Shown piece by piece: positions 4,729 through 8,228 of a stretch of DNA of 53,714 nucleotides (position 1 is its first letter; each line of letters starts with the position of its first letter). The stretch comes from an uncultured Bifidobacteriaceae bacterium (GTDB lineage: Bacteria > Acidobacteriota > Vicinamibacteria > Vicinamibacterales > UBA2999), in assembly GCA_964574545.1 (NCBI GenBank), contig CAZNOC010000003.1:1-53714 (forward strand), in the 5' to 3' direction. The notes beneath the pieces were generated by a model, which saw nothing but the letters and a program-made list of their open reading frames with translations, was not told where the DNA came from and made no database searches. Made by a program: the position numbers and the translations under genes.

Positions 4729-6171
4729 ATGTCCGTCCTTCTGCTCTCCACCTACGATCTCGGCCGCCAGCCATTCGGGTTGGCCTCGCCCACCGCGTGG
4801 CTGCGCCGTGCCGGCGTCGAGACGCACGCCGTCGATCTGTCGCGTCACCGCCTCGACCCCGATCGGCTGGCGCGCGCCGCGCTGGTGGCGGTGTACCTCC
4901 CGATGCACACGGCCACCCGCCTGGCGCTTCCCGTCCTCGACGCCGTGCGCGCGCAGGCCTCCCACGCCCATCTTGCCGCCTATGGCCTTTATGCCCCGCT
5001 CAACGAACGGCTATTGAGGGATCACGGTGTCGAGACCATCCTTGGGCCCGAGTTCGAGGCCGATCTGGTCGCCCTGGCTCAGCGCACGCTGGAGACTGCC
5101 GGCCGGCGAGGCGCCTCCGGCCGCCGCGTGACGCCTGACGCCCCGGCCCCGTTCCACACCGCGAACCCTCGTCCCCGCCTGCCGCGCCTGTCCTTCATCA
5201 CCCCGGACCGCACAGGTTTGCCGTCGCTGTCGGAGTACGCGACGCTGCGCTGGCCCGATGGATCGTCGCGGCTCGTGGGCAGCACGGAGGCGACCCGCGG
5301 TTGCCGGCACTCGTGCCGCCACTGCCCGATCGTTCCGGTGTACGGCGGCCAGTTCCGCGCCGTGCCGGTGGACGTCGTACTGGAAGACATCGCGCAGCAG
5401 GTGGCGGACGGCGCCGGTCACATCACGTTTGCCGACCCCGACTTCCTCAACGGGCCCGCGCACGCGCGGCGCATCGTCGAAGGGCTGCACGCCCGCTGGC
5501 CGTCGCTCACCTACGACGCCACCATCAAGGTGGAACACCTGCGGCGCCATGCGGCCGTCCTGCCGGCGCTTCGGGACACGGGCTGCGCCTTCGTGACGAG
5601 CGCTGTCGAGTCGGTAGACGACCGGGTGCTCGAGCACCTCGACAAGGGGCACACTCGAGCCGATGTGATCTGGGTCTCGGAGGAACTTCGGCGCGTCGGG
5701 TTGCCGCTCGCGCCGACCTTCGTCGCGTTCACGCCGTGGACCACGCTGGAGAGCTACCTCGATCTGCTGGACACCATGGCGGCGCTCGACCTGGTCGAAC
5801 ACGTGGCACCCGTCCAGTGGACGCTGCGCCTGCTCGTCACGTGGCAGTCTCGCCTGCTCGAACTCGACAGCGTACGCGCGGTGACGCGCGCGTTCGATGC
5901 GCAGACCCTGACGTACCCGTGGCGCCATCCAGACCCGCGCGTCGATGCCCTGCAGCGGGACGTGATGACGCTCGTGGGCGTCCGCGCGAGCCGCGCGCGT
6001 CACGAGGTGTACGCGGAGATTCGCGCGCGTGCCTGCGAGGCGGTGGAAGGCCGGCGGGGGAGCCGGCTTCCCACGCGGCCGCCGCTCGTCGCGCGTGCCG
6101 CCATTCCGTACCTGAACGAACCCTGGTACTGTTGAGCGGAGCCCACTGGAGAGCAGGTGGCTCTCCTCTGA
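4729..6171 (+). CDS. CUAEP-tail radical SAM selenoprotein (Sec at TGA 6133-6135)
   Basis: CRHSCRHC 4Fe-4S motif; in-frame TGT TGA GCG GAG CCC reads C-U-A-E-P, then TGEQVALL and a stop at 6169-6171; hairpin directly after the UGA. Confidence 0.88.
6138..6164 (+). promoter_or_regulatory. Putative bacterial SECIS element
   Basis: GAG-c-CCA-CTG[GAGAG]CAG-g-TGG-CTC stem-loop directly 3' of the in-frame UGA, with a G-starting apical loop. Confidence 0.65.
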
Positions 6172-6176
6172 CGCGG

Positions 6177-6253
6177 TTCGCGATTCGCGATTCGCGATTC
6201 GTTGTTCGCAATTCGCGATTCGCTATTCGCAGGTCGCGATTCGCGATTCGCAG
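6177..6253. repeat. Heptamer tandem repeat (TTCGCGA) x11
   Basis: 11 consecutive degenerate units, with palindromic core TCGCGA in the intact ones. Confidence 0.9.
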
Positions 6254-6288: not shown

Positions 6289-7554
6289 GTGAAGCGCATC
6301 CTTCTGCTGGCGACGACAACGGGGTATCAGACCCGGATGTTCGGGGAGGCCGCCGCGCGGATCGGCGTCGAACTGCAGTTCGCCACCGACCGGTGCGACC
6401 AGCTCGAAAATCCCTGGCGCGATGGGGCGATTGCCATTCGCTTCGCGGCGGAGGAGGACTCCGTCCAGGCGATCGTCAAGGCCGCCCGGGATCGGCCGTT
6501 CGACGGGATGCTGACGGTCGGCGATGGCCCCGTCGTGATTGCCGCGCGCGTCGCCGCGGCCCTCGGGATGCCAGGCCACCCACCGGAGGCTGCCGCCGCC
6601 AGCCGCGACAAGCAGCGGTTCCGAGCGCGCCTGAGCGCGGCGAAGCTGTCCGTGCCCTGGTTCACGACCGTGACGGCCGACACAGATCCCGCCACGCTGC
6701 GCGACCGCGTGCCGTTCCCCTGTGTCGTCAAACCCGTCGCGCTTTCGGGCAGCCGCGGCGTCATCAGGGCGAACGATGGACGGGAGTTCGTCGAGGCGTA
6801 CGAGCGGCTGCGGCGCCTGCTGGAGTCGCCGGAGGTGCGGGCCTCGCGTGATGCCGCGACCCGGCTGATTCACGTGGAAGGCTACATCGACGGAGAGGAG
6901 TTCGCCCTCGAGGGCGTGCTCGATAGCGGCCGCCTGCAGACGTTCGCCCTCTTTGACAAACCCGATCCGCTCGTGGGCCCCTTCTTCGAAGAGACGATCT
7001 ACCTCACCCCTTCGCGCCGGTCCGCCCGGCTGCAGGCCACAATCGGACGCGCGGTCGAGGCGGCGGTGAAGGCCGTCGGGCTGCTCCACGGCCCCGTGCA
7101 CGCGGAATGCCGCGTGGGACAGGAAGGCTGCGTCGTGATCGAAGTCGCGGCCCGGCCGATCGGCGGGCTGTGTGCGCGGGCACTGAGGTTCGACGGGCCC
7201 GCGGGACACGGGATATCGCTCGAGGAGGTGCTGCTCCGCCATGCGATGGGTGAACCCGTGGACGGCTACGTGCGCGAGCCTCAGGCGTCTGGCGTGATGA
7301 TGATCCCCATTCCGCGTGAGGGCGTGTACCGGGGAGTGGAGGGGGTGGAGGAGGCCGAAGCTGTCGCGGGCGTGGACCAGGTCACCATCACCGCACGGCC
7401 CGACCAGCGGCTCGTGCCCCTGCCGGAGGGCGCAAGCTATCTGGGCTTCATCTTTGCTCGCGGCGCGGGACCAGCCGAGGCCGAGCGGTCGTTGCGGCAG
7501 GCGCACCGCGCGCTGCGGTTCGCGATCGATCCCCGCATCCCGTTGCGACAGTGA
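6289..7554 (+). CDS. ATP-grasp domain protein (L-amino-acid ligase-like)
   Basis: DKxxFR, VVKPxxLSGSRGV, VEGYIDGEE, HAE, IEVAARPIGG motifs; GTG start inferred at 6289. Confidence 0.88.
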   Translation: MKRILLLATTTGYQTRMFGEAAARIGVELQFATDRCDQLENPWRDGAIAIRFAAEEDSVQAIVKAARDRPFDGMLTVGDGPVVIAARVAAALGMPGHPPEAAAASRDKQRFRARLSAAKLSVPWFTTVTADTDPATLRDRVPFPCVVKPVALSGSRGVIRANDGREFVEAYERLRRLLESPEVRASRDAATRLIHVEGYIDGEEFALEGVLDSGRLQTFALFDKPDPLVGPFFEETIYLTPSRRSARLQATIGRAVEAAVKAVGLLHGPVHAECRVGQEGCVVIEVAARPIGGLCARALRFDGPAGHGISLEEVLLRHAMGEPVDGYVREPQASGVMMIPIPREGVYRGVEGVEEAEAVAGVDQVTITARPDQRLVPLPEGASYLGFIFARGAGPAEAERSLRQAHRALRFAIDPRIPLRQ

Positions 7555-7585: not shown

Positions 7586-7915
7586 CTACTTGGCCTGCTG
7601 CGGGACGTAGCCCGGCGGCAGCGCCGCTCCCTCCCCGAAGAAGAACTCCTCGAGGTGCTTCAGGATGAGCTCCTGACCTTCCTTCTGCCACGGCATCAGG
7701 CGGTATTCATTCAGGATCATCTTCTGGCGCTCTTCCCACAGCTTCCAGGCGTCCGCCGAGACGTGATCGTAGATGCGCTGACCGATCTCCCCGGGCCACG
7801 GCGCCATGTCGAGACCCGGGAGCTGCTTCTGCAACTTCACGCAGAAGACCGTGCGCCCGCTCGTACCGCCGGCCGGCTCGCCCTGGCCCGACGGGGGGCC
7901 GCCACTCATGCTCAT
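7586..7915 (-). CDS. yggX: Fe(II)-trafficking / oxidative damage protection protein YggX
   Basis: RTVFCVKL...GL...PGEIGQRIY..VS..AW..W...Q.M.LNEYRL...GYVP; GGAGG RBS and TACAAT upstream. Confidence 0.92.
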   Translation of the reverse strand: MSMSGGPPSGQGEPAGGTSGRTVFCVKLQKQLPGLDMAPWPGEIGQRIYDHVSADAWKLWEERQKMILNEYRLMPWQKEGQELILKHLEEFFFGEGAALPPGYVPQQAK

Positions 7916-8009
7916 GCCATCGCCTCCAGCCACAGATTGTACTCCCTGCCAGACCGCCAACGAGGCGGGCGGCTGGTATCATGAAGCGTCACCTTCGCCA
8001 CTAAGCACC

Positions 8010-8228
8010 GTGGAACCCGAAGACCGCCATCGCCTCTGCTGGTACAGCCGCCGCACGCCGGAGATCCCCGAGGACCTGGGTCTCCAGACGATCGTTGACG
8101 GCCACCTGCTGTACTGCGCCCACCCCATGTGGTTCCCCGTCGTGGGCTACCAGTTCGAAGTCTCCAACTGCGCAGACTGCGATTACTTCCGGGCGACGAA
8201 GTCCAGTCGCGGCTCGTCGCTCGAATAG
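8010..8228 (+). CDS. Small Cys-rich hypothetical protein (72 aa)
   Basis: GC3-biased codons; C-x25-C-x17-CxxC pattern; GTG start inferred. Confidence 0.55.
   Translation: MEPEDRHRLCWYSRRTPEIPEDLGLQTIVDGHLLYCAHPMWFPVVGYQFEVSNCADCDYFRATKSSRGSSLE

Follow-up and report, generated by a model that had tools for sequence, protein, structure and literature searches.

A CUAEP-tail radical SAM gene of the NF040546 family with a read-through selenocysteine codon and a probable SECIS hairpin at 6148-6166

The TGA at positions 6133-6135 of the window (the whole 53,714-nt stretch of DNA that was analysed) is almost certainly a real selenocysteine (Sec) codon, in a new sequence of a known family, with its SECIS element relocated to 6148-6166. 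The gene that contains it, at 4729-6171 on the forward strand, is a member of the catalogued family NF040546, the CUAEP/CCAEP-tail radical SAM (seleno)proteins, as judged by matches to NF040546 and PF04055 and by its translation. The result extends a gene call that had been cut short, in a family whose members were already known to include Sec proteins, and the covarying hairpin provides an exact, testable SECIS for that family. Haft and Gwadz (10.1101/2022.07.06.499078) give NF040546 as a selenoprotein with a CU motif that is uncharacterised; the main text of the 2026 selenoproteome review makes no mention of it, and a literature search with bioRxiv supplements and subscription journals outside its scope found no paper that places the SECIS of the family or gives its reaction.

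The selenocysteine codon and its conservation

Translation from the start ATG at 4729, with the TGA read through, gives a 480-residue product bearing Sec469 (Met 4729 being residue 1), which ends in W-Y-C-U-A-E-P followed by TGEQVALL. The continued frame AEPTGEQVALL, ending at the TGA at 6169-6171, had been proposed in the original prediction and was confirmed in the sequence. Read-through raises the NF040546 score from 581.3 bits for the truncated protein to 602.3 bits (cut-off 500), which supports Sec decoding. The match covers the whole model, residues 2-477 of the protein aligning with positions 1-467 of the model's 468, and, the tail being the same, there is no difference in kind between this protein and the family. 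ArsL (NF040542) is the second-best family, with 253 bits where 450 are required. The radical SAM domain PF04055 scores 47.4 bits, and the CxxxCxxC cluster motif is encoded at 5302-5325 on the forward strand; all 54 proteins that were aligned keep its three cysteines. On a numbering that follows the translation of 4732-6168, M58-H59-T60-A61 in the N-terminal domain and C285 are also invariant in 54 CUAEP-family proteins and are not found in ArsL; these residues are candidate extra ligands.

Of 151 genomes sampled from the same taxonomic family, 103 carry the gene above cut-off, and tails were examined in these 103 and in eight partial matches, other partial matches being left out. The Cys-Sec codons TGT-TGA occupy 6130-6135 (forward strand), and at the second of them 63 of the 111 relatives have TGA and 48 have a Cys codon, with similarity continuing past it; both the expected U/C alignment with conservation beyond the UGA and the expected occurrence of Cys at this position in family variants are thus borne out. 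A wider set of 106 loci, from which five spurious pattern matches had been dropped, contains 94 with TGA and 12 with Cys, and includes named records from Acidobacteriota, Chloroflexota, Thermomicrobiota, Latescibacterota, Actinomycetota and Gammaproteobacteria. Most of the named relatives that lie closest are Vicinamibacterales or other Acidobacteriota. Such counts overstate the independence of the observations, since only three changes between Sec and Cys are needed on a tree of the 101 rows that remain once 10 short ones are set aside. The tail encoded at 6136-6168 on the forward strand, the codons of which would double as SECIS, has 11 residues in all 63 TGA-type relatives and 5-14 in those of the Cys type. 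The true stop codon, TGA at 6169-6171 (forward strand) in the window, is TGA in 33, TAG in 21 and TAA in 9 of the 63.

Selenium is evidently not essential to the enzyme, given that 48 of the 111 relatives use Cys. The gene selA is found in 61 of the 63 TGA-type genomes, the remaining two carrying selB, and in 29 of the 48 Cys-type genomes; it is, however, common anyway, exceeding its cut-off in 107 of the 151 family genomes, and in a phylum sample its presence in 29/29 genomes with the radical SAM gene is uninformative because 162/201 have it overall. The Cys codon that precedes the Sec codon is TGT in 62 of 63 TGA-type family members, against a genome use of TGT of 14%, whereas the same position is TGC in all 48 Cys-type members (TGT 0/48). 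RNAalifold places a weak 3-bp helix at the UGU-UGA site. As a general recoding signal, UGU before UGA was rejected, for it occurs in only 43 of 70 rows of the wider set.

It is extremely improbable that the TGA at 6133-6135 is instead a true stop, a sequencing error, or a codon reassigned to another amino acid throughout the genome. Gene callers do end the protein there, just as had been foreseen: 119 of the 120 best database matches finish at WYC, the protein's own 468-residue entry among them, the RefSeq CDS of Thermomicrobium roseum also terminates at the equivalent TGA, and the truncated protein alone is still above the NF040546 cut-off. Against this, the codon recurs as TGA in the relatives counted above with a conserved AEP after it, the Sec position is occupied by TGA and never by TAA or TAG, and the Sec machinery is present in the genome. 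TGA also makes up 57% of the stops in long ORFs of the host genome and, taken with the pattern of TGA and Cys among relatives, this led to the rejection of an alternative genetic code or an error. Decoding of the TGA as Sec, to place a C-terminal WYCUAEP tail on an NF040546 enzyme, can be held with a confidence close to certainty. The truncation in current annotation removes residues that ArsL, a relative, cannot do without, and the annotated protein would therefore probably be crippled if expressed; with members of the Cys type this problem is easily avoided.

Two overlapping hairpins downstream of the UGA

With the ribosome at the UGA, positions 6148-6166 of the forward strand very probably fold as a hairpin that acts as the SECIS, with a 7-bp stem (6148-6154 paired with 6160-6166) and the loop AGGUG (6155-6159); Sec decoding at 6133-6135 and this assignment, taken together, are likewise considered highly likely. 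Support comes from covariation in two sets of aligned sequences. In the first, of 57 distinct TGA-type rows, 93.5% of the cells are paired and there are 20 double-sided changes, compared with 87.3% and 6.5 in shuffled alignments (0/500 as good) and with 38-59% paired in slid controls, although the structure was chosen after this set had been seen. In the second set, of 69 rows that are non-identical to those of the first (one row with an N was dropped, and some are from the same family), the corresponding figures are 84.5% and 71 double-change cells, against 72.3% and 24 cells in shuffles, 0/500 being as good for both measures; the number of pairs with a double-sided change does not exceed that in shuffles (257/500), and covariation counts throughout are inflated by the relatedness of the sequences. 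RNAalifold, unaided, recovers six of the seven pairs.

Several further features of the alignments point to the same structure. Its pairs are formed in 94% of cases in the 63 TGA-type tails, versus 49% in the 19 Cys-type tails of equal length, and the window itself carries a compensatory change, having G-C where 39 of the 63 have C-G. Rare codons are kept at paired sites: one Ala is encoded by GCT in 62 of 63 relatives, compared with a genome use of 3.7%, and the sole exception matches a change on the opposite arm. All seven Watson-Crick pairs arose in 0.12% of 200,000 random draws of synonymous codons, for a structure that had been preselected from the data. The second base of the loop, G6156, is G in 63/63 and 70/70 rows.

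The bacterial SECIS model, as set out in PMC13188914, calls for a loop of 3-9 nt, a stem of 4-16 bp, a G at loop position 1 or 2, a distance of 16-37 nt from the UGA and an energy of at most -7.5 kcal/mol. On every one of these counts the AGGUG hairpin lies within the model so described, with a loop of 5 nt that begins 19 nt after the UGA and has G at position 2, a stem of 7 bp and an energy of -12.6 kcal/mol. It shares with the consensus a 5-nt loop, a 7-bp stem and a position-2 G followed by another G, but differs from it in filling nearly all of the remaining coding sequence and ending two bases before the stop.

The original prediction had assigned the role of SECIS to a different structure, a bulged hairpin at 6138-6164 on the forward strand whose loop reads GAGAG. 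This hairpin does fold as described, with an energy of -13.5 kcal/mol (z -1.83, 8/200 shuffles as good), and it is the minimum-energy fold of 6133-6171, with an ensemble frequency of 0.70, although on energy alone the case for it is marginal (z -1.47, 17/200 shuffles). The two hairpins are mutually exclusive because they have a common 3' arm. Between 73 and 79% of the cells of the GAGAG hairpin can pair in relatives, but it shows no covariation in either set: 78.9% of cells paired with no double-sided changes in the first (57 rows), and 73.3% with 7 such changes in the second (69 rows), where shuffles give 72.9% and 5.6. One of its loop-proximal pairs is formed in just 15 of 63 relatives. The slightly short spacing that had been conceded for it proves real, the loop lying 13 nt after the UGA and outside the 16-37 nt of the model in PMC13188914; the difficulty vanishes with the AGGUG hairpin. 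The GAGAG hairpin is thus probably not the SECIS, and it is highly unlikely that it serves either as the SECIS or as a switch competing with the conserved AGGUG hairpin.

In naked RNA that includes the UGA, the GAGAG fold beats the AGGUG hairpin, and neither hairpin stands out by its energy (6136-6175: z -0.47, 65/200 shuffles as good). Leaving out the bases beside the UGA, a manipulation that we take to mimic cover by the ribosome, makes the GAGAG hairpin collapse, and once the first 3-6 bases are excluded the closing pair of the AGGUG hairpin has a probability of 0.95-1.0. A ribosome at the UGA would cover the next few bases and leave 6148-6166 to fold, whereupon SelB, on established knowledge, would bind the loop G and deliver the Sec-tRNA. 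Much of the tail sequence that is conserved after AEP would then be kept for encoding the hairpin, so that most of the conservation in the tail may reflect RNA structure and not a need of the protein.

Selenocysteine machinery and further candidate genes in the genome

The original prediction implied that selA, selB, selC and selD would be present elsewhere in the genome. All four were found above cut-off in the assembly, which is 97% complete, with scores of 527.7 (selA), 336 (selB), 64 (selC) and 273.5 bits (selD). The tRNA-Sec has the anticodon TCA (UCA), and SelB carries winged-helix domains. The only selD above cut-off (C111:2861-3778) carries a fused pyridine nucleotide-disulphide oxidoreductase domain, with Cys in the active site of SelD.

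Seven further probable selenoprotein genes have TGA at the Cys of a recognisable motif: a protein disulfide oxidoreductase, an AhpD-like protein, two peroxiredoxin-like and two rhodanese-like proteins, and a DUF3179 protein, the candidate Sec codons lying at C262 4487, C70 17386, C34 21210 and 23443, C16 18665, C31 23639 and C6 16980. Each is followed by a 6-8 bp hairpin with a loop that begins 17-24 nt after the TGA; as the screen demanded such hairpins, they furnish context and no independent test. The screen listed 25 candidates out of 9,406 hairpin-bearing TGAs, and eight of the 25, chosen by eye, were tested. One of the eight was discarded as an ordinary upstream stop. The screen is insensitive, in that the window's own site at 6133-6135 was unranked by it.

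Relation to ArsL, genomic neighbourhood and possible chemistry

The nearest characterised relative is ArsL, the radical SAM enzyme of arsinothricin biosynthesis with an RCCLKC tail, which has the same domain order and 29-32% identity over about 414 residues. ArsL converts SAM into methylthioadenosine and joins the aminocarboxypropyl (ACP) group to As(III) (10.1101/2024.02.01.577332), and its C-terminal cysteines bind As(III), according to two reports (10.1101/2024.02.01.577332; 10.64898/2026.04.29.721666). The CC of ArsL aligns with the CU found here, so that both proteins have an adjacent C-terminal pair; the tail here, however, is CUAEP instead of RCCLKC and lacks the third Cys of the ArsL CCxxC, and some 45 residues are inserted before it. 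Membership of the ArsL family itself fails, the score being 253 bits against 450, with no RCCLKC motif and no ars cluster in any of 217 loci.

Directly downstream, at 6289-7554 on the forward strand, lies a gene for an ATP-grasp enzyme of the L-amino-acid-ligase type (PF13535, PF18603, PF18130). Of the 108 family loci whose flank is long enough, 107 have it in this place, and it is found in 31 of 60 further loci, in some of them convergent or upstream. Among the 201 genomes of the phylum sample, 28 of the 29 that have the radical SAM gene also have the ATP-grasp gene, versus 8 of the 172 that lack the former, one of these eight being G174, which is marked unpublished, and kin in the sample being non-independent. 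The GGLC cysteine of the ligase (C295) is Cys in all 161 covering rows of 175 alignments, and no Sec form of the ligase or internal stop was found among the 175. Stops inside ATP-grasp matches were considered as further recoding sites and dismissed, being the genes' own ends. On the reverse strand at 7586-7960 there follows an Fe(II)-trafficking protein of the YggX type, which exceeds the cut-offs of both PF04362 and NF003817 and is near the gene in every one of the 71 family loci that extend far enough, as well as in 24 of 60 further loci. In other lineages, where the ATP-grasp and radical SAM genes are apart, NfuA-like genes (L249:5227-5844, L200:5349-5957) adjoin one or the other of them.

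These relationships allow a chemistry like that of ArsL to be proposed, tentatively and by analogy, in which a SAM-derived group is transferred to a tail-bound metal or metalloid and the product is then ligated by the ATP-grasp partner. The flexible Cys-Sec pair would hold a soft metal or metalloid substrate, which need not be arsenic, beside the [4Fe-4S]/SAM site as in ArsL; the enzyme would join to it a group derived from SAM, such as the 3-amino-3-carboxypropyl group transferred by ArsL; the linked ligase would couple the amino-acid-like product into a dipeptide; and the YggX or NfuA neighbours might serve in upkeep of the cluster. The proposal is favoured by the standing of ArsL as next-best family, by the binding of As(III) to its homologous tail, and by the presence of an ATP-grasp gene in ArsL-type clusters on three Bacillales plasmids (L267:635-1858, L268:1436-2668, L269:444-1667), where it adjoins a gene of the carboxymuconolactone-decarboxylase family. 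It is disfavoured by the missing third tail Cys, by the insertion of about 45 residues, by the identity of only 23% between the Bacillales ATP-grasp protein and the ligase here, and by the lack of ars genes: queries with ArsQ, ArsM, ArsN1, ArsB, Acr3, ArsR and aquaporin gave no match in the 217 loci, 140 of which are at least 8 kb long. Genes like those for ArsM, ArsN1 and ArsR do exist elsewhere in the host genome. No literature linking the ATP-grasp gene of the Bacillales clusters to arsinothricin was found. That the radical SAM and ATP-grasp genes constitute a widespread, undescribed two-enzyme pathway, with a second ArsL-type enzyme and a dipeptide product, is on the same analogy a somewhat unlikely extension of this proposal. 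If true, it would place a selenoenzyme forming carbon-heteroatom bonds in natural-product chemistry, in bacteria of soil and fresh water and away from any arsenic cluster.

Two other functions were weighed. In the first, which is unlikely, the Cys-Sec pair would be a mobile redox centre that reduces the substrate or resets the active site, the radical SAM domain acting on an amino acid or dipeptide by ordinary 5'-deoxyadenosyl radical chemistry. Mammalian thioredoxin reductase, with its C-terminal Cys-Sec, offers a parallel. The structure model (overall pLDDT 90.7; the sequence modelled lacked Met1, had Cys in place of Sec and bore one spurious final Cys) assigns low confidence to residues 441-460, the linker before the tail (pLDDT 52-61), so that the adjacent Cys-Sec pair is carried on a probably flexible segment, and the absence of metalloid genes nearby in the 217 loci agrees with such a role. 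So too does the closest solved relative, the radical SAM diol dehydratase AprD4 (PDB 6FD2), which is the best match both by sequence (E 8.7e-07) and by fold (TM 0.65); it is nonetheless only about 19% identical, shared chemistry is without evidence, and neither comparison found a close solved structure. Against a redox role, inspection of the frequent neighbours by eye shows no recurring reductase or thioredoxin, and the homologous tail of ArsL, in the two reports on it, binds substrate and does not shuttle electrons (10.1101/2024.02.01.577332; 10.64898/2026.04.29.721666).

The second function is less likely still, and supposes that the N-terminal Rossmann-like domain binds cobalamin and that a metal or metalloid on the Cys-Sec pair is methylated or alkylated much as by HgcA, another protein with a CU motif. 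Consistent with this, the matches to the modelled fold include, besides AprD4, the proteins TsrM, OxsB, MgmA, CysS and TokK; PF02310 is precomputed for 13 of 120 homologs; the invariant M-H-T-A in the N-terminal domain is absent from ArsL; and CU motifs have been linked to heavy-metal binding by Haft and Gwadz (10.1101/2022.07.06.499078). PF02310 was not found in the protein here, however, cobalamin does not figure in the title of AprD4, the best fold match, and to cast the His as a cobalamin ligand is speculation. The predicted structure and its fold matches, among which both cobalamin-dependent and other enzymes occur, do not decide between transfer of the ArsL type, redox chemistry and cobalamin chemistry, and the remaining probability beyond these three falls to something else.

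A few minor features of the neighbourhood complete the picture. No promoter-like sites were detected, and the two terminator-like sites, against 1.3 expected, are uninformative. Between the radical SAM and ATP-grasp genes, at 6172-6251, Tandem Repeats Finder reports a 7-bp tandem repeat of 11.4 copies, and several relatives have other short repeats at the same intergenic place. A small Cys-containing ORF at 8001-8228, with no family match, occurs in 33 TGA-type family loci versus one of the Cys type, a distribution that may be lineage synteny.
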